Origin: Bilabrum cf. latius
Taxonomy: Eukaryota
Direction of reading: 5' to 3'
Assembly: GCA_965178125.1 (NCBI GenBank)
Contig: OZ237753.1
Span: 1 to 64,000 of the forward strand
Length of the DNA: 64,000 nucleotides
A program made the position numbers and the translations under genes. The notes under the pieces are model-generated. The model was not told the DNA's origin, made no database searches, and worked only from the letters and a program-made list of their open reading frames with translations. Of this stretch, positions 3,206 to 64,000 are shown piece after piece. Positions within the stretch are counted from its first letter, which is position 1; the number at the start of each line of letters is the position of its first letter.

Positions 3206-4549
3206 TTACTGGTAGAAAGCGAACTCTGTGTCTGCCTTGCGAATGTTCTTTTTGTAGCCGGCATCCAGGTCCTGCGGTAGCACGACGTACCTGTTGTGCC
3301 TCACTGCCTACAGCCCCGCCTCAGCGCAGATGGCAGATATGTCCGCCGCTGAGATCTTCTCGGGCCGGTTCACGTAGTCCTCCAAGTCGACCTCGTCGCT
3401 TAGGTTCATCTTGGCGGTGCACGCCTGGAAAATGAGTCGCTTCTACCGGCGATCAGGGCGCGGGAACTCGATCTTGCGGTCCAGACGCCCAGGCCGCAGC
3501 AGTGCCGGGTCGAGCGTATCGTGACGGTTGGTGGCCATGATCACCTTGACGTTGGTGGCCTTGTCAAAGCCGTCCAGCTGCGCCAGCAGCTCGATCAAGA
3601 CTCGCTATACCTCCCTGTCCGCCCCCTGCTGCGAGTCGAACCGCTTCTGCCCGATGGCGTCCACCTCGTCAATGAACACGATGCACGGGGCCTTCTCCTT
3701 GGCCAGCCGGAACACGTCACGCACCATGCGCGGGCCCTCGCCCAGGTACTTCTGCACGAATTCGCTGCCTACCACGCGAATGAAACTGGCCGTTGTTGCG
3801 TTGGCGACTGCCTTCGCAAGCATGGTCTTCCCAGTCCCCGGAGGGCCATACATGAGCACTCCCTTGGGGGGGTCGATACCGATCTGCTCGTACAGCTCTG
3901 GGTGCTGGAGCGGCAGCTCCACAGCCTCGCGCATTTCCTATTTTTGAACATCCAAGCCCCCAATATCTTCGTAAGAAACATCTGGCTTCTCTGTCATCTG
4001 CATAGCCTGAATCGTGCTGTCTGCCTCCGGCGGCAAGATGTCAACGAGGGCATGGGAGCGGCGATGCAGCGCAACGGAGGTGTTTGGGCGGAGCTGATCC
4101 TTGTCTAGCGTTGACAAGCACCTGACGTAATAAGAGCTGCCCTGTGAACTCGTTGTCTGGACGATGCAGTGGTGCTCATCAATCATCTCCAAGAACTGCC
4201 CAATGCTCAGTGGCACTGACTGGATCTTCTTGACTTCCTCTTGGGCACGAACCAATTCCCTCTTTAGATTCTTCATTTCATCTTTAATGTACTCCTCCTG
4301 CGAAACAATTCAGGTTCCCACTTTGGATCACGTGGAGAATGAAGAGCTCTTCTTGCTTGCGTTGGGACGATTGCTTGACTATTCAAAACTCACCTGGATG
4401 TCCAGGAAGTCAAGCTGCCTTTCCGCATCCTTCAGCCTGACGTACAACTCTTTGGATGGAATCTCATCTACTGGAGCTGCTTTGTCGCTTGCGGTAGTGC
4501 TCAGCTTCGTATCAATGGTGGCGCTTTCAGATAGTCCTAAGGCCTCCAT
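3206..4549 (-). CDS. RPT3: 26S proteasome AAA-ATPase subunit Rpt3 (PSMC4)
   Basis: Exons 4549-4394 and 4297-3206, intron GTGAG...TCGCAG. Motifs [36 protein letters not shown]. In-frame TAGs at 3938, 3605, 3443, 3308 (DVQK[Q]EMRE, ADREV[Q]RVL, PDRR[Q]KRLIF). Ends EFAFYQ-TAA. Confidence 0.96.
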
Positions 4550-4760
4550 ACCGATTCTGCGATGAAAAAGGGCAACATTTTAAGCACATACATGATTGTA
4601 AATGTAGTGCATTATGTAAGGAATATCTGATACCTAATTTCGCACCCAGGCTTGAGAAAATGTGAGCGACGCCACATCTGATTTTGTGAATTGTAGCGAG
4701 TAGATAGTGTCCACAGCAAGCCGGCCTACTGGGTGCTATTTCTTGTGCACTTGAGTCAAG

Positions 4761-5565
4761 ATGGCCTCGTATGACTTCTCACTAACAACCTTCGAGAAAA
4801 CGGGCAAGCTGGCTGGGGTAGATCACGCTCTTGCAGCTGTGGCGAAAGGGCAAATGTCCCTGGGAATTCAAGGTGAGCAAGCAATCGACATGTACCGTGG
4901 CATAGCATGGGCATTGGTTTACGCAGCTATGACGAAGCATTACTCTACTATTGTAACCCTTTAATATGATTGCAGCCACAAATGGAGTTGTACTTGCATC
5001 TGAGAAGATGTTGCCCAGCAGCTTGGTGGAGACAGACAGCTTGAGCAAGATCGAGGCTCTCGGAGACAAATCAGGCGTGGCTTACGCTGGGATCAATGCA
5101 GACTTCAGGCTCTTGGTAAAGAATGGACAGAAGCAGGCGTAGACATACTTCAGGAAGTACCGGGAGGCGATCCCATCGCTGCAGCTAGTCCGAAAGCTCG
5201 CTGACGTAATGCAGGAGTACACACAGTCTGGTGGAGTGCGGCCTTTCGGGGTAAGTCTGCTTGCAGCTGGCTATGATGACGATGACGGGGCTCAGCTGTA
5301 CCAAATCGACCCATCTGGAACGTACTTCGGCTGGAAGGCCAGCGCGATCGGCCGGAACTTCAAGCAGGCCAAGAGCTTCTTGGAGAAGAGATGGAGTGAA
5401 GATTTAGAGCTCGAGGACGCGATTCATATGGCCTTGCTGACACTCAGGGAAGGTTTTGAAGGCGAGATGACTTCGGACAAGATCGAGGTGGCCGTGTGTG
5501 ACAAGGAGGGGTTCCGTGTGTTGTCAGCCGCGGACGTCGATGATTACTTGGAGGAAGCAGAGTGA
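4761..5565 (+). CDS. PSMA2: 20S proteasome subunit alpha-2
   Basis: YDFSLTTF N-terminus, intron 4873-4975, [44 protein letters not shown]. One in-frame TAG at 5140 (KQA[Q]TYF). Ends TGA. Confidence 0.95.
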
Positions 5566-5686
5566 CCGGGATCTTGACTGCGATGTTTTGAATATCTTTC
5601 GAATGCAAGCATTGAACGAGTCAGCATCACCACCGTCCGTTGCAGACAGCTCCATGCAATTGCTGCACGATCTGGATCCCTCACCG

Positions 5687-7391
5687 TCACGACTCAGTCT
5701 CGAACTCGAGTGCTTGCCACGTGTGCCCAGTGGCTTCCACGAAGGACGTGAGAGTCGTGGGGGCCATGACCGCGGTGGCTTCGTTCGTGAGCGGGTGCAC
5801 CCCCACGCTCCCGGCCTTGAGCAGGTCGGCGTCCAGCACAACGTGCATGCGCAGAGCCTCGTCGTTCACCAGGCTCAGCGGGGACACATGGCCAGCCCGC
5901 GCGCCAAGGTTGTCCAGCAGCACGTCAGCCCTAGCCATCCTAAGCTGCACCTTGCCATACCCCAGCGCCTCCTGCATGGCCTTGATGTTCACTTTCGCAT
6001 TGGACCTCACGCACACTAGCCATAGTTGCGAGTCAGCCTCCACACCGGCCCTCTTTTTCTTGGCTTTGAACACGAGGTTCTTGACCAGAGCCGCACCCAG
6101 GTGCCCCGCAGCCTTGCCCAGCTCGGCCATGTCCTTGCAGGGCGCGTGCTCGTGCACCTCCACACCCTCCCCGGGGGACACCCCGCACAGAGTCTTGAGG
6201 GCTTCGAGAGCCTTGGCGATGCTGCCGTCCTTACCCAAGTCCTCCTTGTTGCTAGCGGGCTGCTCGCTGGCGGGCTTCACCTCCAGACTGCCCAGGCCGG
6301 AGGACACGGCGGCCTTGCAGATGAAGGCAGCCTCCGGGTGCTTTGACGAGGAGGAGGAGGCACCACCAGCTGCCGGAGCAGCAGGTCCGGCCCCGGCAGT
6401 CTTGGCCTTGGTGGCTTTTTCGGCCTGTCGCTGTGTCTTGGCCTTCTTCACGCCTGAGTTCTTGGCGATGGAGGCGTCTGCCATCTTGGAGACCACACTG
6501 GGGGAGGCCCGCACGTCGATCTAGCCGCCGACACGCGCAACACCTCCGCGCAGCAGGCCAGCGCGCGAGCAGGCGTCAGCAAACGGCTACCAGCGGCGCA
6601 TCTCAGCGAACCAGCGCCGTACATTCTGCGTCTTGGCCAACACAGCGGCATGCTCAGATGGGGCAGATGCCGAGGCTTTTCCTTTTCCCCCCTTGCCATT
6701 GCCTTTACCAGTCGAAGGACCTAGGGCGGCCTCCGCCTCGAGCACCGCGTCACCGATAGATGCGGGAGGGGGCAGGGCTAGCGTGAGCACGTCGAACAGC
6801 GCAGTGGCCGCGCAGGTATCCGCTAGGGTAGGGACAGCCCCTGCCAGATAGGGAGACGACTCTAATGCTGTGTCCATAGCTTTTAATGCACGCATCATAT
6901 CTGGCATTTTACTGATCGTCATGGCTGCCTGCGAACAAAAACAGTTGTATTGCGCAGCTCGCAGATTCTGGCGTCTTGCATATGCACTGGACTAAAGGTG
7001 TTCACTCAGCCTATCTCACAGATTTCTGCGTAGATGTACCTCGCACTCCCATGTTCACAAGGGCAGCGAGCATTGGTCCATCAGATGTGAGAAACTCGCT
7101 GATTTCACCGTTCCCCACAAGCTCGTTGCGAGAAAACTCTACCCACTGGTCCACATTAGCCTTTGCAGCGAGTCCATCACCCAAAAAACTGCCAGCATTT
7201 CCCGCGGATGCAATGTAGCGGAAACCTGCGTAGGGCTTGGACAAGTCTCCAGCCGCTGTGGACATCGTGAACGCTGCGCCATCGGCGGCATTGATGTCGG
7301 CTTCAACACCTGCTACGGATGCAGCAACCATAGCAGGCACAGCCTAGGATCTAGAGCATACAACTCGAATAACACGAGCGGCCGATGCCAT
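5687..7391 (-). CDS. GST-like (eEF1B-gamma/AIMP-type) domain fused to a C-terminal YbaK/ProX (ProXp-ala/PRORSD1-like) aminoacyl-tRNA deacylase domain
   Basis: Exon 1 7391-7020 (AKANVDQWVEF), intron 7019-6929, exon 2 with GST-C-like YLAGAVPTLAD and ProX-like VKNLVFKAKK, GHVSPLSLVND, HPLTNEAT. One frame if TAGs at 7344, 6587 and 6521 are sense. Ends TGA. Confidence 0.75.
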
Positions 7392-7870
7392 ACCAGGAGC
7401 GATTGGAGTGATATTGGATGGTATTGACGAGTTGCGTCCGGCTGGCGTCTTCATCTTCATATATACGAATCTGTAAAGATTGCAGCAGCCTGAGGTGAGG
7501 ATATACCATGCAAGGATAATTGACACACTTGCATGTAAAGAACACAATACTGAATAGGCGGCTTGTCGTGGGGTCAGCCGAAAGTTCCGGCGGATGCTGA
7601 AAGTGAAGATACGGTGCCTCTCTTGAAGAATCCAGCCACCAAGGAAACGCACTGAAGCAAAATGGTGGCAAATGAGGGATTACAAAGTGGCTCGCGAATA
7701 CACTAGCTATGCCGGTAGCTACATTCTGATGCCGTTATCAGGAAAGAAGGTGTACAAGTCTACACGCCATCACGGCAAAGCTATAGACCCCCCAGGAAAT
7801 TCCATGAACGCTCTATAGCGGCAACCACCATCATGTGACTGTATCAATATCCAGATACACAACCCGCACC

Positions 7871-8494
7871 TCAGACCTGGCGGGTAAATTTCATGGTCTG
7901 CCACTTCCACGCAAGCCACACGGCGCTGAGGCCACCGCCAAGGGTGCCAACAAGCACGAAAACTGCGAGTTTGTTTGGATTGAAACAAGGGCAGTCACAG
8001 TAAGTATTGAACTAATTTTGCCCTACATACTGCATGTTGAGTACCTGTACGAAGCAGGCTGGCAGCTCAAGTGCATCCAGGCATGTGGTCCACAACAAAG
8101 AATACTGCGAGGCTGGTTCATCTCATTGCTCACGAGGGGCACCGAGGGGATCGTAGTTGTCGGCCTGCGAGAAAACCTCGTGAATTTCAAGCAGCAAAAT
8201 GCTTGTGTGGGTAATGGCTCAACTTGATGCGGTACTGATGCAAACTCATTATCAGCCCCATTCTTCGCAGTCACTGGGGGAAAAGATGGAAAACTGATGC
8301 AAAGCAGCATAGTATTACCTAACGTCAAACATGGGGTGGTCGTGGTGATCATCACCGCCCCCTCCAGCTGCTACGGCGCTCGTCCTGAAGCTGGCGACCG
8401 GAGCAGAGCGCGCTGCAGCGATTCGGCTCCCAGAGGCACGTGCCACCTGGGCGACACGCATTGATTGCATGGCAGCACGACGAGCAGCGTTCAT
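7871..8494 (-). CDS. Small putative mitochondrial single-TM protein (possibly COX7C-like); exon structure uncertain
   Basis: ATG 8494 gives the Arg/Ala/Ser-rich presequence MNAARRAAMQSMRVAQ...GGGGDDHHDHPMFD. Two CGCAG acceptors follow, and a terminal exon reads FVLVGTLGGGLSAVWLAWKWQ...-TGA. Confidence 0.4.
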
Positions 8495-8667
8495 ACTTCT
8501 TATTTTGCGCTGTATCTGTTGGTGGGATTAGCGAAAGGTTACAAATCTGATTTGTGTTTTCATCACGCAACCACATGTAAATAACGTGGACTTTGGGCCA
8601 AATCGTAAAATGGCGCTCTCTCCTAAGGCCAGGACTTGTCTGTCTGTACTCCTGGAAGCATTCAACA

Positions 8668-9482
8668 ATGGTAAGTATTTGTTTTTGGTAGTGTTCCATG
8701 CATCCCACTTGTTGCTTTATATACGTTAGTGCCACGTGTTGATGTTTCCGGGCTGCTCGCAGGCTGCGACCGCCAAGAGCGAGTTTGTGAGTCCTGGAGG
8801 CCTCGGGGGCTTGGATGCACCTCGGGTACACGCAATTATAGTTTTAGATGGAGCTGGAAAGCGTCTAGCGGGCAAGTATTATGACCCAGCGAAGTACGGA
8901 GCTGCAGGGCTGGACACGCTCAAGAAATAGACAGAATTTGAGGCGAAGCTGTACAAAAAAGCCAAGGGAGTAAGTATGGCAGATTCAGAGGTAGTCCTGC
9001 TAGAAGATCACTAGTGCGTGGTGCGGCGAGGTGACGATGTGTTTTTCATCGCTGTTGCATCCCAAGATGAGGTGAGTGTCCGCCGAGTTCAGCCAGCCCA
9101 TCCCGTACTTTATCTGGCGTGGTGTCAGCGCTTCCTTCTTCTGGTGCACCCGCGTTTATCGCAGAGTGAACTTATTGTGGCTAGCGTGGTCAATACTCTC
9201 TACGAGGCTGTGTCACAGTTGCTAAAAATGCCGACAATATCGAGGCGAGCCCTTCTGGAGCACCTCGTCTTGCTGCTGCTAGCGCTGGATGAAATTGTGG
9301 AGGGGGGTGTGGTGTTTGAGACAGACCCAGAGAATGTTGTTGATCGCGTTAAGCTGAAGGGGGCCGTACCAGAGGCGCTGAGTGCCTACGAGGAGATGAC
9401 GGTGAGCTCCATGTTCTCGTTAGCGAGGGACATGGTTGCGAAGCAGCTGGGAGGTGGAGCAGACGAGGAGCGCTACTATTGA
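8668..9482 (+). CDS. COPZ: Coatomer subunit zeta
   Basis: ATG directly followed by an intron (8671-8762); second intron 9072-9164. AIIVLDGAGKRLAGKYY, KK[Q]TEFEAKLY (TAG 8928), TAG 9012, LLALDEIVEGGVVFETDP. Ends TGA. Confidence 0.92.
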
Positions 9483-9848
9483 CTGAACATGCATCATATA
9501 CGGATTATCTTCGATCGAGACCAGAAACTTCTTTCTGACCGGTCCTTTGCGTGGACGACGCTACTGAGCAGTTTGCAGCCCCGCCGCTCCAGCAGCAATT
9601 CGCTTACCACCCGGCCTGGTACATCCGGCGCGTAACAGCCCTCCGTATCTCCTTGGATCAGGCTGGTAACGTACAGGGGCAGTCCGAAACGCACGTGAAA
9701 CGGTATGCGAGCCACCCCGTATACTGCGCTGCATGTTTGTGCCGCACTAGATTCTAGTCTATGCATCTCACCGGTGCGAGCAAACACCAGGGACTGGTGG
9801 ACATAACCAGTGCAAATGGCCAGGGTCAATAGAGCGAATGGAATGTTT

Positions 9849-10624
9849 TCACGACTGTTCACTGGCTGGCCTGCTCGCTCTTTTAGCAGCAGCGGCAGAG
9901 GCGGCATCCCGGACCGCGGTTGCATCGTCCTCGTCGTCGTCTTCGTCACCCTCACCAAAGCTGATGGTCAGCAAAGAGTCCAGAGGCAACCCTTTGCAGC
10001 TTTCTACAAACTGAGGAAATGTGATCCCGCTGCTGTTCCCGTCGCCTGGTTGCTTGCAAGAGGCAAGCGTTCGGTCGACAATCTCCCGCACTTGCGCGTC
10101 AGAGCACGCACCCTTCGTCATAGTCCTAACTGATTTGGTGAGATCTTCGCTGCTCAACGTTCCATCTCCATCATAATCAAATATTGCGAAAAGTAGGCGG
10201 TATCGTTCATCGGAATGCCGCATGTGAGGTGCGAACACCTTCAGAGTGCCAAGAAACTCCCGAAAATTCAGCATTCGCTCGGATGCATCTTCGTGAGTCG
10301 AATCTGCAGGATCCCCAGATCGAAACAAGCAGACAAATCTGCTCGCAAGCGGGTTCATACAAAGCTCTGGTATCATCATTAGGTCCTTCGCAGACACAAG
10401 TCCCGACTTCGAGCGATCCAACTTGCTGTATCGTTTCCACAAATACAGCACTGTTTTCTGTGCAACTGCGGTGAGGGTGAAGCAATTTTAATGGGGTCAT
10501 TACTCGCTGAATATGCACAGATACTAAAAAGGCCAATTGCGAGCTCCTTCAACCTACATCCGGACTCCTCCATAAGATCCGCGACTTCTTCTGGGCGCAA
10601 AGCAACGGATGAAGAACTTCCCAT
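9849..10624 (-). CDS. Calcineurin B homologous / EF-hand Ca-binding protein (CHP/CNB-like)
   Basis: MGSSSS myristoylation-type start, one intron (~10557-10466), IPELCMNPLASR, EF-hand FAIFDYDGDGTLSSEDL. Ends TGA. Confidence 0.85.
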
Positions 10625-10832
10625 TCTCGACCGCAATTGCCGTGATACTTGACGTCTGACGGTACTGTCTCGACCTGTTGGGACGAAGGGCTTGCCGTGC
10701 CGCAGCCGCTGTGGTCTGGTGTGACGAGGGCGATTGCACCAGCTGTCCGCAAACGTAAGATCGGCGATTTCGCCTCACTTCTAGCTTCTCACCCAAGCAA
10801 GGTACACCTATTCAGCAGTCTGTCATTGATTC

Positions 10833-12128
10833 ATGCCAAGGCACGGAAAGAAAAGCGCGAAGAGCGCAGCTGCAAAGGAGAAAGCTGCAAGAGATGCCGA
10901 GAGGCGCGAGCGGCTACTTGCTAAGCGCAAGATTGAAGATGCTGTCAAGGAGCGCCAGGAAATGATCAAAAACGTATGCAAGACTGCTATGTACGCTGAT
11001 GATGGAAAAACTGTCAGAAATTGTCTTGAACTGGCTAGTGCGTTTGCGAACTACACGGCCGGCGTAGCTAGTGAGCCCGTGAAGTGGTCGGACCGCTCAG
11101 ACCTGCTTCCAGCGGAAGATTCAGACGACAAGAGGGTACTTGTTGATGCAGACCCAGACTCATCAGAGTCACCAGACGGTGGGAAGAAAGGGGATGCTGG
11201 AGAGAGCAAGGGTGCCGAGGAGGAGCCATCGTCTGGTGCTGGGGCGGGCGACGGTAGCTCCGAAGCATCTGTGGATCCTCTGATGTTGCGCCGCGACACG
11301 ATTGTGGAGGCAGATGGATACGCTGGCGTCGGCCCAAAGTCGGACGCTTGGATGCGGGACGAGGACGAGGACGAGTACAACTCAGCAGTGGCAGAGTCAG
11401 CCGAGCTGGAGGTGGTGCACAGGCACGGTGGCGAGGGCGAGGGTGCCGCGTCAGAGAGGGAGAGAGATTGGATGCTCTCACTCACCAAGCGCAACCTGAT
11501 GAACCTGTACATTCGCGCCCGGTGGGGATGGAGCGATGGCGAGAAGAGGGCCGAGATGACGGACCCAGACGCGCGATACCTGATCGTATACCGCAAGGGA
11601 GAGGCGGGCAAGGCGGACACCAAGAGACCTCTTGCATTCGTGCACTACCGGTTCATCGCCCAGGGGGCATTCCCGGTGCTGTACCTGTTCGAGATCCAGC
11701 TGGAGAGGAGCGCCCGCCGGCGCGGTGTGGGCAAGCACCTCATGCGCATGGTGGAAGTGATCGCAAAGCGCACCGGCATGGGCTGGGTGATGCTGACCGT
11801 ATTTAACGAAAACGTGTCTGCCAGGAAGCTGTACATGAACAAGCTCGCCTACAGGGTGGACGAGACCTCGCCGTCTCGGGTCGGTAAGCGTGGGGAGCAC
11901 TTCCAGTACGAGATCCTGAGCAAGTGCCTGCTCAAGCACATGCGGCACGTCAAGATGGGCAGGTCCATCCCGCTGCATGTTGCGACTGGTGAAGAGGAGA
12001 AGGCCCGCAAGCGCATGGCCGAAGATCTCGAGAAGGTCCGCAAGCAGCAGGAGGAGCAGGTGCTGAAGGCACTCGAGCAGCAGAAAGCAGGGGGGGCGGG
12101 CGCGGCGGGTGGAGGCAGCAGCAGCTGA
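10833..12128 (+). CDS. NAA40: N-alpha-acetyltransferase 40 (NatD, histone H4/H2A N-terminal acetyltransferase)
   Basis: WGWSDGEKRAEM, ARYLIV, AFVHYRF, VLYLFEIQLE..RRRGVGKHLM, VMLTVF..N, DETSP, YEILSK. Confidence 0.9.
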   Translation: MPRHGKKSAKSAAAKEKAARDAERRERLLAKRKIEDAVKERQEMIKNVCKTAMYADDGKTVRNCLELASAFANYTAGVASEPVKWSDRSDLLPAEDSDDKRVLVDADPDSSESPDGGKKGDAGESKGAEEEPSSGAGAGDGSSEASVDPLMLRRDTIVEADGYAGVGPKSDAWMRDEDEDEYNSAVAESAELEVVHRHGGEGEGAASERERDWMLSLTKRNLMNLYIRARWGWSDGEKRAEMTDPDARYLIVYRKGEAGKADTKRPLAFVHYRFIAQGAFPVLYLFEIQLERSARRRGVGKHLMRMVEVIAKRTGMGWVMLTVFNENVSARKLYMNKLAYRVDETSPSRVGKRGEHFQYEILSKCLLKHMRHVKMGRSIPLHVATGEEEKARKRMAEDLEKVRKQQEEQVLKALEQQKAGGAGAAGGGSSS

Positions 12129-12326
12129 GGGCAAGAAATCATGACCGCGCGGCAAACCTGCTGGCGCGCGCCATGCTTGTCTCGCAACCATCGCCACGGC
12201 GATTGGGCGAGATGCATGGGACAGTACGTGCCAACTTCAGTGACAAGCGAATAATGATTGAACTGTTGCTACACCACATCAGACTCGCTGTTGCTCTCGT
12301 GCTCGGCCGGGGCATGTTTCATGGGG

Positions 12327-13230
12327 TCACAGCTCGTCCCCCTCGTGAGCACCTAACGTTCTTTTGCCTGCCGTGCTGGATCTGTGACTGGATTTTTTGT
12401 TCTTCTATTTGCGTCTTTTGGCCCCCTTCTTCGCTTTGCGCTTTGCGGTCTTCCTCTTCTTGGCCTTTTTCTTGTTCAGCTCCCGGAGCCTCACTTTCTC
12501 CTCGGTGCGTTTCGCGCGATCAAACACTTTTAGCGTTCCATCGCGATGCATTTCCGGCGAAATACCGGCATCATCGAGCGCTCTTTTAAGGGAAGAAGAG
12601 GACAGCACGTCGCTGCCAGCTGCATCGTTCGGGCTGCCCTTGCCGGTCCTCATGGCCATCTCTGCTTCTGGTGAAATCCAGCGCACTCCACGCCCAGAGC
12701 AGAACCTAGGGCAGATCTTGCTCTCAGCCTTTGGTAGTGTCCCGGCTTTGTATATTTGCTCTTCGATGGATCCGTCGTCAACAGTCCACCCTCTACTCTT
12801 GGACGACCTGGGGACATCTTCGCCATGGCTGTCAAACACATCCAGGAATTCTGAACATGCCTTTGCCATTGTAGGAGGAATAGCACGATAAATCTCGAAA
12901 TTTTCTTGTGCGCAAATGTCAAGTACTTTGTCGTATATGTCACTTTCTTTCCGAACGCGCCTCGGTGGCAGCTGCTTGAATACCTCGATGAGTGTTGCAT
13001 GGCAACCATCGCACAGCAACTGAGGAGTAATTTCCGGTGATGCTCGAGGATCAGTACCCTGCGAACACATGCAGAGCGTCTAGATGGAGTTAACCATTGA
13101 GTTTCAATCAACCCACCTGTGGACTGCTGGGACATTGGCTCACAAATACTATATCTCCTCCATTTACTTGTCCCATAGCAAAATCAATACAGAAATGACC
13201 AATAGCAGCAATGATAGCATAACACATCAT
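12327..13230 (-). CDS. Canopy/saposin-like ER-lumenal protein
   Basis: Hydrophobic signal-like exon 1, intron ending TTCGCAG at ~13059, saposin-like Cys pattern LCDGCH...ICA...ACSEF...ICPRFC. Reading TAG 12405 as Q extends the protein to a C-terminal GDEL-TGA, resembling an ER-retention signal. Confidence 0.7.
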
Positions 13231-13407
13231 GGACCCCCCTACAAATAGATCAGATCTAGTCTGGACACGTTGCCAGTGCCAGTGGGCGCAGGGCATAGCA
13301 GTGCAGTGCAATTTTCAAAAGCACGTCGAATGAACACATTCCTTTGGCCAGAAACGGCCGACCCAGTCGAATTTCTGTGCTTGGAATGCGCTGAGTAATA
13401 TAACGGA

Positions 13408-14436: not shown

Positions 14437-14645
14437 AGCTATCAGGTGCACGCTAAAAGAGCGGGTTGAGGTGGACACTGTCTAATTTACAGGTTATCAC
14501 GCGGTTACTGTCAATCTCGCAAATCCGCCTTGCCGCGACAAAAGTACCCATTCTTCATCTGAGGCCACTCGAACTGCCAGCCAGGTACTTGCCACCCAAC
14601 TCCCCACCGCTAATTGTGTGTCCCGTGCGGGGTGGGTCGTCATTG

Positions 14646-18263: not shown

Positions 18264-18394
18264 GGTTCGTGACAAAGCCCTGTTTTGACCGCACCGCGAA
18301 GTGTCTCCGGCGAAACCGGAAGAGCGAATATCCGGCGCCGCCGGCGGCACTGGGCACAGCAGAAAGAATCACTCTCTCCGTGGATCGAGCAGCA

Positions 18395-46559: not shown

Positions 46560-46603
<44 letters not shown>

Positions 46604-47547: not shown

Positions 47548-47849
47548 ACGTGGACATTAATGACTGTTTCACTTGAACACTTGATCTAGAGAACCGTTGG
47601 GATCACAACAATCGTTGCCCGCAACGGATGGATTTGGGTACGAACCGGGAGGAACCTTCCATTCTGAGTTCAAATCAGCCTCGCCTCGTTGTGCGAGGCT
47701 GGCGTTCACACCGCTGCTTTGTTAGAAATATGGTGAGACTCTGTTTTAAAGTCGTGTATTGCTTCAGTTTGGGCGTGTCTGTCGATTTGTTACAGTAACT
47801 ACGCACACTGGCCAGATGTGTCCCGCAGCCGAAGCGACGACGAGAAGCG

Positions 47850-53375: not shown

Positions 53376-54476
53376 TCATTCACATGCGCACCCGCGGTCC
53401 TTCTAGTCATACAGCGTCAGGACGCAGCACGAGAAGACCAGTCCCTTCGGCAGCGCCACTGCATTCCTCGTGTACAGTTGTTTGTCCAAGTGATCATCCG
53501 CGCTGAAGCACTCGTCACTGATCCGGATGAGTCTCAACGGGGTGAATAGATATGTGTCGTACCCCTTCTGCGACAGCAGCTCGAACTACTCCTTGGGCTT
53601 CATGTCGGTCTGGAGGGAGATCCTGTTGAGCTCGAAGAATATCGCCTTGATTTTGCCGGATCCCAGCAGATCATATGGTTTGGTCATGCCTCGCAACACC
53701 ATCCCGTCCAAGCCCTCCGTGTCTATTTTCATGAACGGGATGTCTGCGTCCCGACCGATGCCCTCGGGGCTGTCTGCCCACTCTCCGATCGAAACCGTTT
53801 CAACGTGGCCAACTACCGAGTCAAACGTTTTTCCTCCATCTGGAGGTCGATGAAGCAGTGAAAACATTGTCCAGCTGTCCCACTTCGTCGCCTGAGGGGC
53901 GCCAAGCACGTCTACCTTTTGTCCAGACGTGTCGCTGACCGCTCGCTGTATCTGATGCAGTCGCTCAGGGGCAACATGGTCCCGAACCGTTTTCTGTATC
54001 AGTTTCTACATCTTGGGCATCATCTCAAACGTGTAATGCTGCTATCCGGGCCACACTTTTGCCATTTCCCTGGAAAATTCTCCCTTGTTCGCACCGATGT
54101 CTATAAAGACTGACTGGGATCCTGCTACCGCCCCTGCTTGCTTCACGGCCTGTAAGAGCTTTGCCTATGCTTCACCGACATCTGGGTGCCCTCGGATTTC
54201 CTCCTTTACGTCACTCGCAGACAGGCTTGGCTGGCATTGCTCCCCCGCCCACTCGGCCACCAGACCCGACTGCCTCGTAGCAAACAGGCTGACTGCAGCG
54301 CCTGATGTGGCACCGTGTCGAAGTGAATAATTTCCTGAGAAGTATAGCATCGGGCCTGCTGCAATCACAAGAACAGCGGCAATGCAAGCAGATGCGACAA
54401 CCAGCGTTCTGTTCATCTTCACACATTTCACTACGCCCCAGCCTTTCCGTCCCTCTTTCCTATCTGACGAGTTCAT
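53376..54476 (-). CDS. FkbM-family SAM-dependent methyltransferase, type II membrane anchor
   Basis: N-terminal TM, VFIDIGANKG, YTFE, RAVSD, FMKIDTEGLDGMVLRG, IFFE. TAGs at 54165, 54042, 54006, 53586, 53403. Start may be 54416. Ends TGA. Confidence 0.82.
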
Positions 54477-54832: not shown

Positions 54833-57800
54833 TCACTGCCTGCTCTTGCTACAGATGCTGCACACCTTGATACCCATCGGGTTATTCATGGTGCAGTGCT
54901 TGCAGCTCCAGTAAGGACCCATCGTAGGATCCACCCCGTCGGCACCGGGAGGGACAGGAACCGCAGCCGCTGCCCCCTCTGCCCGACCCTGGCCGCTGGC
55001 TGAGGCAGACCCCTGCATTGAGGAACCCTGCCCCTGGCCCTGCTGCACCCCGACTGCACTCCCGCCTCCTCCTCCTCCACTTTGTCCCTATGTGCGGAAG
55101 CTGTCCTGCATCTCACGGGCAAACGCCGCGTCCTTCTCTTCCTGGGTCATGGTGGAGGAGGCTGCAGTACTTGCGGCACCAGGGAAAGTGGAGGAGGAGG
55201 AGGAGGCAGGTTGGTAGCCTGCCCCAGACCCGAAGCCAGTCGGCCCACCACTGGACCCGAAGCCAGGCACCGCACGAGATCCCGCACCCGTGCCCGTGCC
55301 AGCAGTTGGATACCCCGGGCCGGCGACGTCGATACCTGGGGGTGCGGGTGGGTGGGTGGATGCCGGCGAGTAAGGCGCGGCAGATGCTGCGGCAGCACCG
55401 ACGGTACCAGCCATGCTCGCGCCTGAGTACCCGCCGAACGCGTACGACGGCAGCGGCCCGCCAGATCCAGTGGTGGACGCTGGGCCTGCACTCGTTACAC
55501 CGCTGGCACTCGGATATCCAGGGCCGGCGGGCTGGGCGGATGCTCCGACGCCTGTCGCCGTGCTGGCAGGTGCATACCCATCTGTTCCCTGCCCGTGGGC
55601 CGGGGCCGGGGCTTGCGCCGTGGGCAGCGACTGTCCCACGGTAGACGCAGCGGACGGACTCGGAATCGCATAGGTGGGTGGGCCTAGCCCGAAGCCAGCG
55701 GGTGGGGCAGCCGATGCCCCGCCTCGGGGGCCAACCGGCTGCGAGAAGGAAGATGCCGCCGCTCCTGTCGTGGCACTGGCACTGCTACCCGGAGCACTCT
55801 GCCACGAGGATGCACCCTGCCCGGAAGTCCCAGCTCCAGTTGGTGCAGTGCGGTGCACCTGGGGAAACCCAGGCGCAGGTGCAGGCGCCCCTAGGAGCCC
55901 ACCATCTCCAACCCGCCCGAGATCGCCAGGCAGCGACAGGTCGCTGGGCTCGTCGGGTACAAGCGCAGGAGACCCTGTGCTGCCTGGCTCCACGCCGACC
56001 GCGCCGGACCCAGCCCCTGGCTGTCCGGCGGTTCCGCGGGGCGTCCACGGCGCCGCCCCAAGCAGCTCATCCGTCGGTGGCAGCCCGGGCAGGGGCGCAA
56101 AGAACGGAGACGTCCTCGCTTCGAGGCGGGCCGCTGCCAGGTCCCGGCCCTGGGAGGTGGCCAAAGGCGCGGGCATAGGCCTCGCCCCCACTGCGGTGTG
56201 CATGCGTACCAGCGCGAGCAGCAGTCCGCTGTTCCCTGCGCCACCGCCGCTGGACCGCCCCGACAGCTCCACGGGGATTTCTCTCGCTGCCAGCTGCCGC
56301 AGCGCGCCCATGCCCGCTGCGACTCTCTGTGCGCACTCCGCAGTATCGCCCCCTGCCGCCATGCCCTGCGCCGCGGGGTCAGCCGCTCCTGCTGGAGCGC
56401 CGCCGCCCGACTGCGCCCTCGCCCTCTTGCCTAGCTCATCGCCGGCGCTGCTCACCCCGTGGCCCAGGCGAGCGAAGGACGCCACCGCGCTGGCTGCCTG
56501 CACCTTGAGTCCGTCCGCGTGGGCATCCGAGGCGGAGACTGCAGCAATCCCGTAGGCGGCTTCAAGCACGCCGGCGTCAATGATGCCGGCCAGCAGACGC
56601 AGGTCGGGCGCAGGCTAGGAAGAGCTGGCAGAGGCGCAGGCACCTGCAAGCACGACCAGCCCGTGGAGGGCCGCGCGAGTCGCGTCTCGGCTCTCGGGCG
56701 CCAGGGCGGCGGGCGCCGGCTGCAGGGCGCGGCCGAGTGCCCGCAGGGTCTGCGATCGGGGCACAAAGCCGCCGCTTCCGTCAACGGACCCGGTCTTTGT
56801 CGATTCAGCAGCGGCCTGCGCCAGGCCCTCCGCGGCGGTGGAGAAGCCGAACAGAGCGAGAGCCTTGCCCGCGCGGCCGTCGAGCGCCGAGGCCAGCGGG
56901 GCGGGGCTGCCGGCCCCATGCGAAGAGGGCGCGCAAAGCTGCAGCATGCGCTCCAGCAGCTCCGCCGCCCCGCTTCCCCCGAGATCCGTGGCTCCCACGG
57001 GCCGGGTGGCCACCGCCAGCGCGAGGCAGCCCGCAGCAGCCCTCGCAAGGTTCGCGAGAGCCACAGCCGACACGTGAGCGGGCCGGCGCGAGAGGGCGGG
57101 AGGCCTACCCTCTGCGGGCGACCCTTCTCTCGGTGCGTCAGAGTCAGCGGCAGCCGCCTCATGCACCTCGATATCAACCCCCAAAGCCTCTGCGAGCCGA
57201 TCCGCGGACACGAGGCCGGCCTCCACCGCGGCCCTGTGCGTGGAGGCCTCCCCTCGGGGCAGCATGGCGGCGGTGTCCACAGTCTGGGCCAGCGGCAGCA
57301 GCACGGCCACGCAGTCCAGCAGCAGCTTGCTGGCGGCATCTAGCCCGCGGGAGGAGTGGCTGCCCCCTGCCTGTGCCTTGGCCTGTCCCAGCGCCCCAGG
57401 CACCGCGAGCATGGTGGTGGTCACGCGGGCGACGAGAGTCTGAATGGCCGGACTGCTGCTGTGCGGTGCAGCGACAGCCAGGGCATCAGCACCGGGCTGG
57501 TCCGCCTGACCTTCTTCCTGTTCTTCTTTCTCCTTTCCTTCCCCGACCCCGCTGCTGCCAGACTCCTTCTTGCCGATTGCAGCAACGCCCGCATCTTCGC
57601 TGCTGGCCAGCGCAGTCGCGATCTGCAGGCGCACGGAATGCGAGGCCCTGCTGAGGGCACCGAGCACCCGCATCGCGTGCACGAATGCGCTCGCGTCCAC
57701 GCCGCCCGCACCAGCACCCCCGGGCCCGCCCACCCACGCCGGCTGGGATCGGATCATCTCAATGCTGGACTGCCGGTTGATGCCGGGGCTCGCCCTGGTC

Positions 57801-60800
57801 ACGGGAGACGACACGTCCAGCACCGCCCCGCCGGCCATCGACACGAACTGGCCGGCGTCAGCAGAGGCGCTCGCACCGGCAGCCACACCTTGCTGCTGCC
57901 CGTTCCCGATCATCGCAGACACAACCGCCTCGGCCGCTTCGACCGAGCCGGGTAGCAGCCCCGCCAGCCGCCCCACGAGGCCCAGCCTGGAGGCCTCCAC
58001 GGCCGCTTGCTGCACGTCCTCGGCCACAGCCCGCCGCAGGAGCACCATGGCGAGGCGCCCCTCCAGCGCCACCACGGAGGCAGAGGCGTGGGACGAGGCA
58101 GAGGACCCCCCGGCTTCCCGGCGAGCGCTCCTGTCCAGCATGTCGCACGCGGCGGCCACTGCGCCCTCGCGGAACAGGGCGGCTGCGTGCGCCCCCGCCG
58201 CCTCGAGCAAGCCCGCAGCGCACTGCAGCAGGGCGGGGTACTCCTTTGCCGCCTTGCCATCCCCCACTGCGCTCGCGGCGCCCGTTAGGTTCCGCATCAC
58301 GGGCGGCAGGACCACCTCACCGAGCAGCCTGAGTTCTTCCTGGGTCCAGGCGGGCACGTCCGCCCGCGGTATACCACCCCTGTCGGCGGCCGCTGCCACC
58401 GGCGTGCCGATCGATGCCTGCCTGCTGGGAGCGCTGCCGCCCGCGCCCTCGTCCGCGTCGGGGCCAGAACCGAATCCAGGCACAGCGCCGGCGGCACCCT
58501 CCTACTGCTGCTAGGAGGGTGCGGGGACCCCCCAGTCCGGGTGCGCGCACAGCAGCTGCAGCACGATGCGGTCCCAGCGGGAGGCCTGCGCGCCCGGAGA
58601 CCCTACTGCGGAAGGGACAGGAGGGGATCCCCCGCCCGGAGGTGGCACCGCGCCCACAGCTGCCCCGTGCTGCGCGGGCTCCAGCTGCTGGCCCGCCGCG
58701 GATCCACCCTGGCCGCCGGGCGCATCGCCTTGCAGCGTGTTGAGAACCTTCGCCACGAACCGTAGGAGCTTCGCTCGGACCCGGTTGTCCCCGGCCTGGT
58801 GGCTGGCACCACCGGCCCCCCTGCCGCCTGCAGACGGCCCGGCAGCACCCCCGCCGCCCTCGTGTCTCCCCAGCCTCGACCACAGCAGAGCGGAGTGCCC
58901 CTTCGAAAGCCCCTCCAAAAGGGACAGGCACTCGCCGGCCACTCCCACGGCCACCGCAGAACTGCCGCTGCCCCCTTGTCCTCTCGCGACGGCGTCAACA
59001 GCGCCTGCCTGCGCGCATGCGGTCAGCAGCAGCACCAGCGGACCCAGCGCCCCGGCTTCCAGGCACGCAGTTCCCGCCTCCTCCACTCCACTCCGCACCG
59101 CGACACCCAGGACACCCAGCGCAGCAGCAGCGATCGCCGGCTCTGATGGCTCCTCCCCGTCCCCGGCGGCCCCGCTGGACTGGCTGCCGCCGCGGCTCCC
59201 CGTGGCCGGCCACTGCTGCAGCCACGCGGCGGCCTGTCTCTCAGTGGACGGCAGCAGCCCCACCAGCGTCTGCACACCCTGCAGCTGCGCCAGCCTCCGC
59301 ACGTTGGAGCTGCCCTCGGAGCACAGCAGCCGCACGCTCCTGCACGCCCTGGCCTCTGCGCCCTTGTCCCCTGACCGCATCAGGGCGAGTGCCGTGGGCA
59401 GGTCGTTCCGGGCCTCCACCGCCTCCCAGACGGCGCCGCTGCGGCCCGCCACACGCAGCAGCAGCGCGGTCACAGTCATGCGGAGACGCTCCACGCTTGG
59501 CACAGCCACGAGGCCGAAACCGGCGGCATCGCCTCCTGGAGAGTCCGTCCCTCGGCCCGACACGGTGCTCTCCCGGAGGCTGTCCCTGTGCTGCACCAGG
59601 GAGGAGGGCGGGGGGGCGACAGCGCCGGGCGGAGCCACGGCTCCGCTGGTCTCTCGGCCCCCCGTCTGCCCCCCATCGTCGCCGTCCGAGACGATCGTAA
59701 ACAGCCGCATCAGCACCGTGGTGATGCCGCTGTCGGCCGCGACCAGTCCAGAAACCCGCACCATCATGGGGTCTGCCTGCGACCCCGCACCGGGGGCACT
59801 TTCCTTACCCTGGGCGCGGCCTGCGATTGCCTCCAGCAGCTGCACCGCCGGGAGCAGCAGCTGCCTGGCAGCCGGCTCCTGTTTGGCGGCCGCTCCCAGC
59901 GCCACCACCACAGGAGATGCGCAGTGCACTGCAGCCTGGCACAGCTCGAAGCGGCGCTCATCAGGCACGATGGAGGGCTGCGCCGGCTGGCCCAGACTGC
60001 CCACATGCAGTGGGCCCCCGCCCCTAAGTACCGCTGCGCAGGCCGCGCGCAGCGCCTTGAAAGCATCTGCCGCGGCGGCCAGCCGCCCCTCGCCGATCTG
60101 ACGCGCGGCCGCACCTGCGCGCTCCTCCTCCTCGTTCTCGTCCCGCGCCGGCCCCTGGGAGGTCGCGGTGGCACGCAGGCCGGCAGACACTCCGCCCACC
60201 AGCTTGATCAGCGCCTGCACCACTCCGGCATGGTCCGCGAGTGCCGCGAGCCGCGCCAAGTTCCGCAGGGCGACAGCATCCCCCGAAGAGCCGGCCCCCC
60301 CGCCGCTGCTCCCACCGTACGACGAGGCGCCCGCCGCGGGTCCTGAAAACCCGCCGCCGCTTGCCACCGACCGCTGGGCAGCCGCGGGCGCCAGCAGAGG
60401 TGAGTCCAGCACCTCCGTGACCATCTGCACCAGGCTGCGGACAGCCACCCACCGCAGGCGATTGGGCCCTGCTTCGGCGCCACCGCCCGCCACAGGGGCT
60501 CCCACCAGCAGGCACTGGACCAGCCTGCCCACATGCTTGAAGGCGGCAGTCGCAACCTCCTCCTTGAGCGAGGGAACAAAGGCTGCTTGCCTAGCCACCG
60601 AGAGAGCGCGCAGGGCTACCATGGGCGAGACGTCCCCCTGCAGCACCCTCAGCCCCGCGTGCAGCAGCTGCCGCCTCGCGTCGGCGCCCGATGCCTGCCC
60701 GTTGCTGCCATCCTACCCCTGTCCCTGACCCTGGCCCTGACCCTGACCCTGCTCCGATGCGGACGCAGAGACCCAAGCCATGCCCAGTAGGTGCTGCAGA

Positions 60801-63800
60801 CGCAGCTGCGACACGTCGTCCCGCGCACGGATGCATTGCACTGCGGACTGCAGGGCACCCCCAAGGCCACGGTCCACCATGCGGGCGGCCACCCCGTCCG
60901 ACGCGCACAGCGCCACCAGCAGCGACAGCGACGCCCGCACACTCGGCTCGTGCCCGCTCTGGAGCTGCCGCAGCACGGTGGGCAGCAGCTGGGAGTCGGC
61001 CAGCACCGCCAGCCGGCTCGTCGTGCCTGCCCCCAGGGCTGCCCCCGAGTCGGGGACAGACCCCTGCGGCCCCGCCCTCGCCCTCACTGCCTCCCTCTCA
61101 CGGACCTTGTCCTGGTCTTGCTGCGTGGAGCTCGCCCCGCCGGCTGCCGCGTCGTACGGCTGCATGGCCAGCGCCTTGTACGTCCGCACCGCGACGGCGT
61201 CCTCTTCTTGTGTTCCCTGGTCCCCGCCGGCCCCCGAGGCCCCTTCCTCCACGGCAGAGGGCAGCAGCGCAGAGGCGGCCGCGATGGGGTCACTCGCGTC
61301 CGGCTGGCCCGTCCCTTGGATGCCGCCGGAGCACAGGACGGCAAGCAGCTCCATGGCACTCGCCATCGCCGCCCGGCCTGCCGGCCCGTCCGTGGCCGAC
61401 GCGGCCGCTACCACCTCTGCAGCGACGTCTGCGCCCTCACCCGCCGCCGCCAGCACGGCGGCCTGCTGCGCCGAGGCCTCCATGGCCACGAGCAGCCGGC
61501 CGACCGCCTCTGCCACCTGCCGCACCTTCCCGCCGGTTGATTGCCACACGGCCATGCGGGCGGGCGCGGCCCGCAGCATCCCCCTTGTTCCCTGGATAAG
61601 CCCAAAGGCCGCTTCCACCGCCGCGGTGGCCTCCTCCCGGGCAGCCACCAGCTCCCCCGAGCCCCTTGCTGCGGCTGCGCTGCCGTACGCAGAGAGCCCA
61701 TCTCTGGGCCTCCCGCTCAGGGGCATGGCAAGGGCCTTGAGCGCCCCCAGGAGGCACGGCAGCAGCACGTCGGAGAGCTGAGCGTGGATGCCCTGGCCCG
61801 CCCCGGGGAGACCGGCCGCTAGCGCCGCCCCGGCCCGACGCACCGCCCCCGCGAGACCCAGCCTGGCGTCCGAGGCTGGGGTGTTGCCCGCCCCCGCAGA
61901 CACCAGCTGCAGGCTGGTGGAGAGGCGCCCGGGCGAGATCCCGGCGGCGCTGCCTCCCGCCAGCGCGTCGATCGCTGCTCTCTGCTGCTGGGTCTCTCGC
62001 AGGGCCACCGCATGCCTGGTTTCCCCCTTGCGGCCGGCCACCACCACGAGAGCGTCCACCAGGGCCAGTGGGCTGCTGGCCACGGCCAGGCCGAGCCCGG
62101 CCCCGCCTGCCTCTCCGTGGTCACCCGACAGGCTCGTGAGGCACTGTGCCGCGCCGGCAACCAGCGATCGGAGCCGCCCGCACGCCTCGGGGTGTCCCCC
62201 CGTCACGCTGGCCCCAGCCACGGCGTCTGCACCGCCCATCTGCGCCAGCAGCCGAAGCACCACCTCGGGCGTGTGGACCTCCACCAGCCTGGCCCGACAG
62301 GCCCCGGAGGCCAGCGCGGCGGCCCCGACGAGCCCGAGGCACTGCTGCACCGCGAGGAACCTCCACCGGCACATGGACTCGTCCTCCGCACGCACCGCCA
62401 TCTGCAGAGGCCCGTCTGTGGGCGGCAGCGCAGTGGACCTGGAGGCCTGCTTGCCCTCGGAATCCAGGGCGCCTGACCTGCCCGTGTCCCCGTACGAGAC
62501 ACCAGCCAGCCGCTGTGCATGCCCCGCAGGGATCTCGCGGGAGAGCGCCGGCACACCGGCCAGCTCCGCCAGCCGCGGCAGGTCGGCCAGGTTGCAGTAC
62601 TCGTACACGAGCCTCGAGGCGGCCGCCAGCGCCATCCCTCGGCTGATCGCTTCCTGCCCCGCCTCGTGCTCGCAGAGGGCACGCAGGCACCTGGACGCCC
62701 ACAGGGTCTGCTCCAGGGCCTGCGGGGTCACGGCCCCAAGCCCCTGCGCGTTGCAGTACCTGGCCATCGCGTCCAGCACGCCGGTGCAGGCCTCCACCGC
62801 GCCCGCCCGCAGCATGGCCGCCGCGTGCCGCTGGGAGGCCATCGTGGCCGCCTGCCCTTGGGCGATGAGGGCACAGCGCATGCACCGCATGGCCTCCACG
62901 ACCAAAGAGTGCCGCCCCGGCGTGCTCACGTGGCCGGTCAGCAGTGCCACCGACTGCCTGAGGCTGCCCAGCGGGAGCGGCTGGCCGGTCAGCGACACGC
63001 CGCCCGAGGCCGCAGCGGCGGCGGTCCCCAGCTCATCAGGGGACGCTGGACCCAGCCGTCCGTTGGTCACGTCGCGGGCCAGCGACGCCACGGCCGCCAG
63101 CTGTTCCCCGATCTGGGCCGTCTGCATGTCTCTGCAGCACAGCAGGCAGGAGCAGTAGGCGCGCGCTAGAGTCGCACGCACCGCGTCGATGGCGAGACCT
63201 TCCTCCGTCTTCTCGCGGCCCTCTGCCGGTGCACGCGTGGCGCTGAGCATCGCCAGCTGCTGGCAAATGGCCGGCCCCACCTGCTTTGCGAACATGGCGC
63301 TCTGCGTGTTCTGCAGCAGCACCAGCGGCACGCCCGCGGGAATGGCGCTCTCGTCGCCAAGCTCGGAGAACAGTGGGAGAGGGGCCGTGGCGGATGCGGC
63401 GCTGGCAGCGCTGGCCGCCTGCCCTGCCGCTGCACCGCCCCCCGCACCTGCCCCCGCCCCCGCCCCGCCGGCCATTGCCAGACTCTCCCGCATGGCATGG
63501 GCCATCGCGGCGTCCCCGAACATGGCGGCGTGCAGCTGCTGTTGCTGCTGCTGTTGCCCGAGCCCGACACCCGTGCCTGTGCCTGCTCCAGGCCCCCCCC
63601 CTCGAGACACGGCCGCCTCCGGGGGAGTGGCCCCTTCCAGCTCGAGCTGGAGCGCGTGCCTGGCATACCCCGGCAGCCCCTGCCTGCCCCCAGGGGGCCC
63701 GATCGGCATGAGCGTGCCGTCGTCCGTCTGCAGGCCCCACAGGACGAGCGAATTCACGGCTGCGCCGGCCATCGCTACCAGCGGCGTGCACTCGTCACCC

Positions 63801-64000
63801 TCCTGCAGCAGCTGTGCCTGCAGCGCACCCACCACCCCGCTTTTCACCACGGCAGAGTCGAAGTCCTGGGACAGCAGCTGGTGCACCGCCGCAACCTCCC
63901 TGGGCCCGCTCCTGCGATCAGCCGCCTTCATCTGCGACTGAGCCGAGGCGTTGGCCTGGTACGCCAGGGAACAAGCGCATGCGAGCCGCATGCCCACCAT
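54833..64000 (-). CDS. Very large (>3000 aa, 5' end beyond window) ARM/HEAT-repeat protein with C-terminal RanBP2/NZF zinc finger
   Basis: ORFs 60713, 58511, 56615, 55088 and 54833 are in one frame separated only by TAG. ARM-like helices (AGAVEAC, EAGALGPLVLLL, GVQTLVGLL); DAAFAREMQ ubiquitin-binding-like motif; WSCKHCTMNN....CSIC. Ends TGA. Confidence 0.8.

Follow-up and report, generated by a model that had tools for sequence, protein, structure and literature searches.

The first 64,000 nucleotides (nt) of contig OZ237753.1 from Bilabrum cf. latius (GenBank assembly GCA_965178125.1, positions 1 to 64,000 of the forward strand), referred to here as the window, carry tightly packed eukaryotic genes on both strands from 3.2 kb on, with short introns of 85-171 nt, and most of the coding frames contain TAG. 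The codon appears to be read as glutamine (Gln, Q) in this organism, with TAA and TGA kept as stops, which is the reading that an original prediction had drawn from the sequence and that was followed up here. Gene identities were obtained from Pfam and PDB searches, and TAG was read as X in the PDB queries, so that those alignments are unbiased.

The first gene, whose end lies about 170 bp past the last satellite of the left edge (a 53-bp array), encodes RPT3 (26S proteasome ATPase 6B) on the minus strand at 3206-4557, with exons 3209-4297 and 4394-4557 or beyond (Pfam AAA, E 1e-45). TAG occurs in its frame at 3938-3940, 3605-3607, 3443-3445 and 3308-3310, and a TAA stop at 3206-3208 stands directly after ...FAFYQ. 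PSMA2 (proteasome alpha-2) lies on the plus strand at 4760-5565 (Pfam Proteasome, E 2e-50), with TAG at 5140-5142 and a TGA stop at 5563-5565. A minus-strand gene at 5690-7400 encodes a protein with a GST-C-like region and an aminoacyl-tRNA editing domain of the YbaK/ProX type (Pfam tRNA_edit, E 3e-20); it ends in TGA and has coding TAGs at 6587-6589 and 6521-6523 and an intronic one at 6992-6994 (intron 6929-7019). COPZ (coatomer zeta; Pfam Clat_adaptor_s) occupies 8600-9482 of the plus strand, with one exon ending at 8670 and others at 8763-9071 and 9165-9479, TAG at 8928-8930 and 9012-9014, and a TGA stop.

A plus-strand open reading frame (ORF) of 342 codons at 13408-14436 carries TAG at 13606 and 13609 (a tandem TAG-TAG), 13861, 13990, 14317 and 14389 before its TGA stop, and it has no Pfam match and belongs to no known family. 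A FUSC-family membrane protein is encoded on the minus strand at 14646-18368 (Pfam FUSC and FUSC_2, E 1e-12; TGA stop) with 14 TAGs between 14681 and 17657, three of them inside the FUSC domain. The TMEM184/OST-alpha-like transporter lies on the plus strand at 21318-23015 (Pfam Solute_trans_a, E 1e-73), with a TAA stop at 23013-23015 and TAG at 21597, 22044, 22263, 22848, 22884 and 22887, the last two in tandem; a further TAG at 21339 is near the start of the ORF. Between these two genes, a polysaccharide lyase family 8 protein is encoded at 18996-21122 of the plus strand (Pfam Lyase_8, E 1e-30), with TAG at 20949 and 20997 and a TGA stop. Family-8 polysaccharide lyases and altronate/galactarate dehydratases are known mainly from bacteria, and a protein resembling the latter is encoded at 23832-27179, also with in-frame TAG; at 1,116 residues, it is about twice the usual length. 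Because both genes carry in-frame TAG, they are taken as resident genes and not as contamination.

The genes farther into the window show the same feature. An ICT1/ArfB-type peptidyl-tRNA hydrolase with the GGQ motif (minus strand, 23035-23601; PDB alignment E 3e-18; TAA stop) has one TAG in its C-terminal tail, and isovaleryl-CoA dehydrogenase (IVD), present as two ORF pieces (minus strand, 27406-28933; PDB alignment E 2e-40; TGA stop), has one in the N-terminal piece. A myotubularin-like phosphatase (minus strand, 31373-34972; Pfam Myotub-related, E 9e-108; TGA stop) carries seven. Its PDB alignment falls into the pieces 555-647 and 702-986, and the TAGs at 33163 and 33058 lie in the insert between both conserved halves; an in-frame intron was considered for this insert and ruled out, since the insert lacks the GTGAG...CGCAG borders of the ten known introns and is far richer in guanine and cytosine (GC). 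An eIF3I-like WD40 protein (minus strand, 36433-38058; Pfam EIF3I and WD40; TGA stop) contains TAG at 37734 and 36540, and an ISCA1-type Fe-S assembly protein (minus strand, 39339-39790; PDB alignment E 2e-15) contains TAG at 39556-39558 in exon 2, in the context GCNG[TAG]SY, with a TAA stop at 39339-39341. Pfam and PDB also matched an EF-hand protein, an NAA40-like acetyltransferase, a FAM210-domain protein, a second RRM protein and an FkbM-type methyltransferase. An RRM protein for which Pfam gave the RRM alone resembles PPIL4 by eye. Several further long frames have no known family. The largest, a giant minus-strand frame that stays open for 3,055 codons or more (54836-64000; 73% GC; five TAGs; TGA stop), leaves the window and matched no Pfam family at E <= 0.001. 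Ala, Gly and Ser abound in its product, and a Cys-rich motif at the C-terminus looks, by eye, like a RanBP2-type zinc finger.

Public sequencing runs were used to compare DNA with transcripts. Window sequence is present in four DNA-like runs (X1-X4); contigs of the DNA run X1 and of runs X5, X6 and X7, which come from two other studies and contain about 0.7 of the sampled words, were compared with positions 3101-23100. The X5-X7 contigs showed ten joints with GT..AG ends (CT..AC for minus-strand genes), and the X1 contigs did not have these joints; for this reason X5-X7 are taken as spliced RNA. RPT3 was covered from 3101 to 4296, joined to 4393-4557, in all three RNA runs, and PSMA2 and the editing-domain gene from 4974 to 6927, joined to 7019-7396 (PSMA2 in X5 and X7, the joint 6927/7019 in X5, X6 and X7), in both cases with no other letters. 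For COPZ, the joints 8669/8762 and 9069/9163 were seen in X5 and X6, and the exon with its TAGs lies between them. The 342-codon ORF was covered without differences by X5 (13349-14471) and X6 (13351-14438), FUSC by X7 only (14491-18235, no other letters and no gaps), and the lyase and the transporter by X7 (18996-23100, joint 18901/18996), with X5 adding 21289-23082 at zero differences. Over the whole 20 kb, only positions 15437 and 18189 differed, both at low depth and neither at a TAG.

All 38 TAGs of the RNA-covered set were unchanged in the X5-X7 contigs. The original prediction had named editing, splicing-out and sequencing error as outcomes that would tell against it, and the retention of TAG in spliced contigs excludes these, together with pseudogenes, for 3101-23100. 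An artefact or lack of translation (sequencing or assembly error, pseudogene lesions, RNA editing or splicing-out) would otherwise be suggested by two TAGs of the raw list, 6994 and 13082, which do fall in introns. However, X1 DNA contigs and three RNA runs of two other studies agree at all 38 sites, introns were removed elsewhere and not around these TAGs, the genes are intact and conserved (RPT3 is about 80-85% identical to its homologues), and decay would not have spared TAA and TGA, which are absent in frame. The probability of such an artefact is practically negligible.

For the census of in-frame TAG, frames were trimmed to RNA-defined exons and to the first ATG or domain start before counting. 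The intronic TAGs 6994 and 13082 were left out, as were TAGs before the first ATG or domain start in TMEM184, myotubularin and the frame at 49175; the few TAGs near ORF starts probably belong to 5' untranslated regions. In total, 88 in-frame TAGs were counted in 15,054 codons of 27 coding segments, and TAG was present in 24 of the segments, the exceptions being one IVD piece and the genes for the EF-hand protein and the acetyltransferase; the final exon of COPZ, too, is free of TAG. The RNA-covered set (12 segments, 4,806 codons) contains 38 TAG, 117 CAG and 42 CAA; the homology-supported set outside the RNA comparison (11 segments, 5,167 codons) contains 25, 137 and 32; and four long segments without firm family support (5,081 codons) contain 25, 216 and 41. 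Of the Gln-type codons, TAG accounts for about 13-19%, a share comparable to that of an ordinary codon.

Frame-specific counts separate TAG from the other two codons. In the RNA-covered set the coding frame has 38 TAG, 0 TAA and 0 TGA, and frames +1/+2 have 49/32 TAG, 23/21 TAA and 89/121 TGA, so TAG is as common in frame as off frame while TAA and TGA are kept out of frame; the frame-0 zeros for TAA and TGA are partly a product of how the ORFs were delimited. Given the off-frame densities of TAA and TGA, frames of 1,195 to more than 3,000 codons free of both are not chance products. The FUSC frame, 1,195 codons on one RNA contig, has 14 TAG, 0 TAA and 0 TGA beside 22 CAA and 27 CAG, and the two off-frames over the full ORF of 1,240 codons have 5+9 TAA and 15+25 TGA. 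Under the standard code, the RPT3 AAA domain, the FUSC domain and the transporter domain would all be cut. When TAG is treated as sense, the number of ORFs of at least 300 codons rises from 33 to 59, as against 33 to 38 for TAA. ORF length is confounded by GC content, since dropping TGA extends random ORFs even more than dropping TAG, and the TTAGGG repeat units inflate the raw minus-strand TAG count; frame-specific counts were therefore preferred. Programmed UAG readthrough was considered and ruled out, as 65 in-frame TAGs show no shared pattern in the base that follows (G 21, C 19, A 14, T 11) or in the neighbouring codons, and nearly all segments carry the codon. TAG also stands twice in tandem with itself, and at 58504-58515, in the giant frame, TAG CAG CAG TAG alternates it with CAG in a Q run.

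The ends of the genes show which codons terminate. In RPT3, the TAA follows the last residue, as the alignment runs through the final residue of the spinach and human PDB chains; its C-terminus is the Hb-Y-X (hydrophobic-Tyr-X) tripeptide, which must be terminal to dock on the 20S core. The PSMA2 TGA comes directly after a query end aligned to residue 235 of 235 of the spinach chain, the ISCA1 TAA two codons past the CGCGESF motif, and the TMEM184 TAA 70 nt short of where its RNA contig ends. Five of 25 frames end in TAA, and these are the five for which this had been claimed at the outset (RPT3, TMEM184, ICT1, the PPIL4-like gene and ISCA1); the remaining 20 end in TGA. No in-frame TGA was found in the 15,054 codons. 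A code with no dedicated stop, of the Condylostoma type, was ruled out, as neither TAA nor TGA occurs in frame in any homology- or RNA-supported segment.

The commonest eukaryotic stop reassignment by far is that of UAA and UAG (UAR) together to Gln (PMC5304391), and the use of TGA at 20 of 25 ends would suit an NCBI table 6 type code in which only UGA stops and UAA is merely rare because of high GC. TAA read as sense had also been named in advance as an outcome that would overturn the prediction. It was not found: the 4,806 RNA-covered codons contain no in-frame TAA against about 14 expected if TAA:TAG followed CAA:CAG (42:117), FUSC has none beside its 22 CAA, and TAA as sense hardly extends the ORFs. 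Furthermore, TAA stands exactly at the RPT3 family C-terminus and just past the last ISCA1 motif, and it also closes TMEM184, ICT1 and the PPIL4-like gene. A UAR code is very improbable here.

The residue at TAG was examined in alignment columns of homologues; the large searches with RPT3 and TMEM184 used queries with Q at the TAG sites. At the four RPT3 columns, Q was present in 120/120, 120/120, 120/120 and 109/120 homologues, the rest of the fourth being H (10) and M (1); in the PDB chains this fourth column has H in spinach and L in human. Among 149 TMEM184 homologues, the column of 21597 has Q 132, R 11 and a gap in 6, that of 22263 has Q in 137, and that of 22044 is variable (R 45, K 26 and others). 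The COPZ 8928 column is Q in all four PDB chains and the 9012 column is T in all four. The PSMA2 column has Q in two human chains and E in spinach. Variable columns were also found in eIF3I (P 5, Q 4, T 3 among 19 residues) and ICT1 (P or K in the PDB chains), and the IVD column is R in two chains and K in three. Altogether, seven of the 14 columns are dominated by Q (four in RPT3, two in TMEM184 and one in COPZ), PSMA2 is split between Q and E, and ISCA1 is hydrophobic. The capped log-odds sum over the 14 columns was +16.3 for Q, with K next at -15.6 and P and R at -18.1.

These columns support the decoding of UAG as Gln. The seven TAGs first named as evidence (RPT3 3938, 3605 and 3443, PSMA2 5140, COPZ 8928 and TMEM184 21597 and 22263) were all found in the expected frame, and the fourth RPT3 TAG at 3308-3310 adds to them. 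The broader claim that TAGs sit at Gln positions conserved in the families stood for the seven Q-dominated columns and, as a Q/E split, for PSMA2; it did not hold for the five columns that are variable or of another polar residue, or for ISCA1 with its M or F. Other residues are assigned to UAG elsewhere, such as Leu in the rhizarian exLh, Ser in Scotinosphaera and Glu, Lys or Tyr in some ciliates, and the ISCA1 column, the E in spinach PSMA2 and the K/R of IVD could be read in that direction. Yet three of the seven Q-dominated columns are invariant in 120 homologues, all residues other than Q score far lower in the log-odds, and TAG alternates with CAG in the Q run of the giant frame, so that an amino acid other than Gln is barely credible.

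A close relative offers a direct comparison. P0007, a public 243-amino-acid protein drawn from assemblies of sequencing runs, matches the C-terminal half of the transporter (22284-23012) at 96% identity. It has Q opposite TAG 22848, which also speaks against another residue, and a single Q opposite the tandem TAG-TAG at 22884/22887, one tandem codon being missing. Its start is the first Met after TAG 22263, which fits a standard-code gene call on a close relative that shares the upstream TAG; P0007 is thus probably a truncated call.

Taken together, the window is very probably part of the nuclear genome of a protist with GC-rich DNA and introns, in which cytoplasmic ribosomes translate UAG as Gln and use UAA and UGA as sole terminators, the NCBI table 15 assignment. 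The central claim of the original prediction is upheld by TAG in spliced RNA, Q in homologue columns, Q in the 96% identical relative, and TAA and TGA at family C-termini. Several observations weigh against this reading. Runs X5-X7 are typed 'RNA?' only, and X7 is flagged as probably DNA, so that their RNA nature rests on the spliced joints. The Q-bearing queries introduce a small bias in the choice of RPT3 and TMEM184 matches. Five of the 14 columns (TMEM184 22044, eIF3I, COPZ 9012, ICT1 and IVD) are variable or non-Q polar and uninformative for Gln, and the ISCA1 column is M or F in five of five bacterial chains, a hydrophobic position where Gln is unexpected and the sole misfit; this TAG is truly exonic, five codons after the 3' splice site and beside a conserved Cys. 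TAG lies within the last 10 codons in four of 22 ORFs against about 1.4 expected, and could still terminate there. Finally, no tRNA gene was found by ARAGORN in the 64-kb window, the eRF1 gene does not lie in it, and the mechanism through tRNA and eRF1 is deduced only.

The late TAGs raise the question of a dual meaning. They are found 5-10 codons before the closing TGA in FUSC (14679-14681), FAM210 (41429-41431), a PUB-like frame (43284-43286) and FkbM (53403-53405), and they may be old UAG stops that translation now passes on its way to a back-up stop, or sites at which UAG has kept some terminator function. UAG might accordingly be Gln inside genes and a terminator at some ends by position, as in Condylostoma, karyorelicts and Blastocrithidia, and context-dependent codes of this kind exist (10.1101/2022.04.12.488043). 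Sequence cannot separate a terminating TAG from a sense TAG plus a near stop, nor show the absence of UAG termination, because frames with TAG as sense always run on to TAA or TGA. The excess is small, however (Poisson p about 0.05), and is explained equally by ancestral TAG stops read through to nearby back-up stops; dedicated TAA and TGA stops are ample, which makes ambiguity unneeded, and the TMEM184 TAGs that lie 43-55 codons from the end are Q in P0007. A dual meaning is therefore unlikely.

For a UAG read as Gln throughout, a dedicated tRNA-Gln with anticodon CUA would decode the codon. Such a tRNA would be derived from tRNA-Gln(CUG) through one anticodon change and would be unable to pair with UAA, and the eRF1 N-domain would have lost affinity for UAG, keeping UAA and UGA. 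This model follows what is established for such codes (PMC5304391): CUA is the only anticodon that reads UAG and not UAA, and the tRNA would be paired with a change in the N-domain of eRF1 by which the recognition of UAG is weakened. Several lineages with UAR codes are known to have tRNA-Gln(CUA) (PMC5304391). A different route would dispense with a dedicated tRNA, the near-cognate tRNA-Gln(CUG), possibly modified, reading UAG after eRF1 lost its recognition. Near-cognate tRNA-Gln readthrough occurs in standard-code organisms (PMC13192750), Pánek et al. (PMC5304391) note that most variant codes have no identified decoding tRNA, and the window has no tRNA gene; an Rfam scan of it gave no matches either. 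But 64 kb is far too short to expect the tRNA gene, RPT3 with its four TAGs and FUSC with its 14 would need near-complete decoding at every site, and TAG-TAG occurs in tandem twice. Near-cognate reading is quite unlikely, and a dedicated tRNA-Gln(CUA) would be the expected decoder.

Very few known changes part UAG from UAA. As the original prediction had said, Gln codes confined to UAG are rare, and one of them is that of Iotanema spirale, with UAA and UGA as stops (Pánek et al. 2017, PMC5304391). The same UAG-only change is described for Protocruzia tuzeti and two phyllopharyngean ciliate lineages (PMC11687900), which also names a rhizarian in which UAG is Leu and the green alga Scotinosphaera in which it is Ser. 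Iotanema spirale (Metamonada, Fornicata) shares with the present organism the codon assignment, UAG at Gln positions, UAA kept as a terminator and the expected mechanism, tRNA-Gln(CUA) with an eRF1 N-domain change, which would here be of the same kind; its eRF1 carries a T32G change (PMC5304391). Unlike the present organism, whose best named relatives are stramenopiles, it belongs to another supergroup, and PMC5304391, based on a transcriptome only, gives UAA as its primary terminator; here genomic DNA and introns are at hand, GC content is high (50-73%) and TGA closes most frames (20 of 25). Protocruzia tuzeti and the phyllopharyngean ciliates also reassigned UAG alone to Gln, but they are alveolates with nuclear dimorphism in a phylum with frequent code changes, whereas GT..AG introns, TTAGGG-type telomeres and stramenopile-like proteins are found here.

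Other systems are alike in part. The UAR codes of many ciliates, hexamitin diplomonads, oxymonads, some ulvophyte green algae and Amoeboaphelidium also turn a stop into Gln, but UAA is Gln in them and terminates here. Some crAss-like phages use the same formal table 15, with TAG=Q; unlike the cellular nuclear code considered here, theirs is viral and depends on suppressor tRNAs late in infection (PMC9523058). No nuclear stop-codon reassignment in stramenopiles, bicosoecids or labyrinthulomycetes was found in a search of full-text literature, which did not reach most subscription journals and supplements, so that an earlier description is possible.

The placement of the organism was approached through RPT3. 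Among its best 120 homologues, all named full-length matches are stramenopiles: Cafeteria at 81% identity, many oomycetes at 79-80% and the thraustochytrid Hondaea at 78%. The high rank of three plant entries is due solely to their being longer or partial, and a green-alga affinity, first suggested by the spinach chains as best PDB matches, was dropped because the full-length named matches are all stramenopile and the tree agrees. In a FastTree phylogeny of 119 rows, the query grouped with Cafeteria and three other sequences (SH-like support 87) within a clade of 19 rows (98). One very conserved gene and a quick tree method thus tilt the balance towards a stramenopile near bicosoecids. Homologue searches with TMEM184 (one usable match), eIF3I (at most 31% identity) and the TAG-free NAA40-like gene brought up no close relative with a name. 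Scanning metagenomes with RPT3 gave 80 loci, seven of them eukaryotic RPT3 genes; none of the seven has an in-frame TAG in an unbroken frame, a result uninformative on the spread of the code. The other 73 align with RPT3 over only a portion of its length, at 37-47% identity, and appear to be AAA-ATPase genes of more distant kinds.

This code probably represents an independent origin of UAG-only Gln in a supergroup without a recorded case. A bolder proposal, which may go either way, is that it is the first stop reassignment in a stramenopile nuclear genome and arose independently in a bicosoecid-related heterotroph with a GC-rich genome, living freely or with a host. The code would then be common to this organism and one or more sister strains or species, among them the source of P0007, and might be young enough for ancestral UAG stops to be visible still before back-up stops. 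If so, the organism would offer a genome and transcriptome system in which the order of change, tRNA first or eRF1 first, could be dated against standard-code relatives. Whether UAA and UAG are coupled by a mechanistic constraint can be tested on every further independent case, and the setting here is unusual in its GC-rich genome and in the use of TGA rather than TAA as main stop. Since genomic DNA, transcripts with spliced joints and the 96% identical relative are all public, the changes in tRNA and eRF1 can be sought and compared directly. Furthermore, because TAG occurs in 24 of the 27 coding segments examined, standard-code annotation is wrong for most genes, and standard-code gene callers truncate or split most proteins of this organism.

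The left edge of the window is a chromosome end, made up of telomere-type TTAGGG repeats and satellites. Degenerate (CCCTAA)n fills 1-490 (82 units, 85% matches), followed by a 154-bp satellite at 489-1646 (7.5 copies), a near-perfect internal (CCCTAA)128 array at 1686-2453 (99% matches) and the 53-bp satellite at 2455-3035 (11 copies). In 4-kb steps across the 64 kb, GC content ranges from 50 to 73%, with a step from about 50% at 40000-48000 to 73% at 56000-64000, and the stretch from 43.3 to 45.4 kb has short frames only and looks gene-poor. Several RNA and DNA contigs diverge from the window sequence at 18348-18353, 11375 and 9925-9927, where alternative exons, repeats or allelic structural differences may be present. 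The ten RNA-defined introns lie at 4298-4393, 4873-4975, 6929-7019, 7963-8133, 8165-8323, 8671-8762, 9072-9164, 10466-10557, 13059-13143 and 18902-18995. They begin with GTGAG, GTAAG, GTTAG or GTAGG, and eight of the ten close with the same 3' splice-site pentamer, CGCAG, an unusually uniform border.

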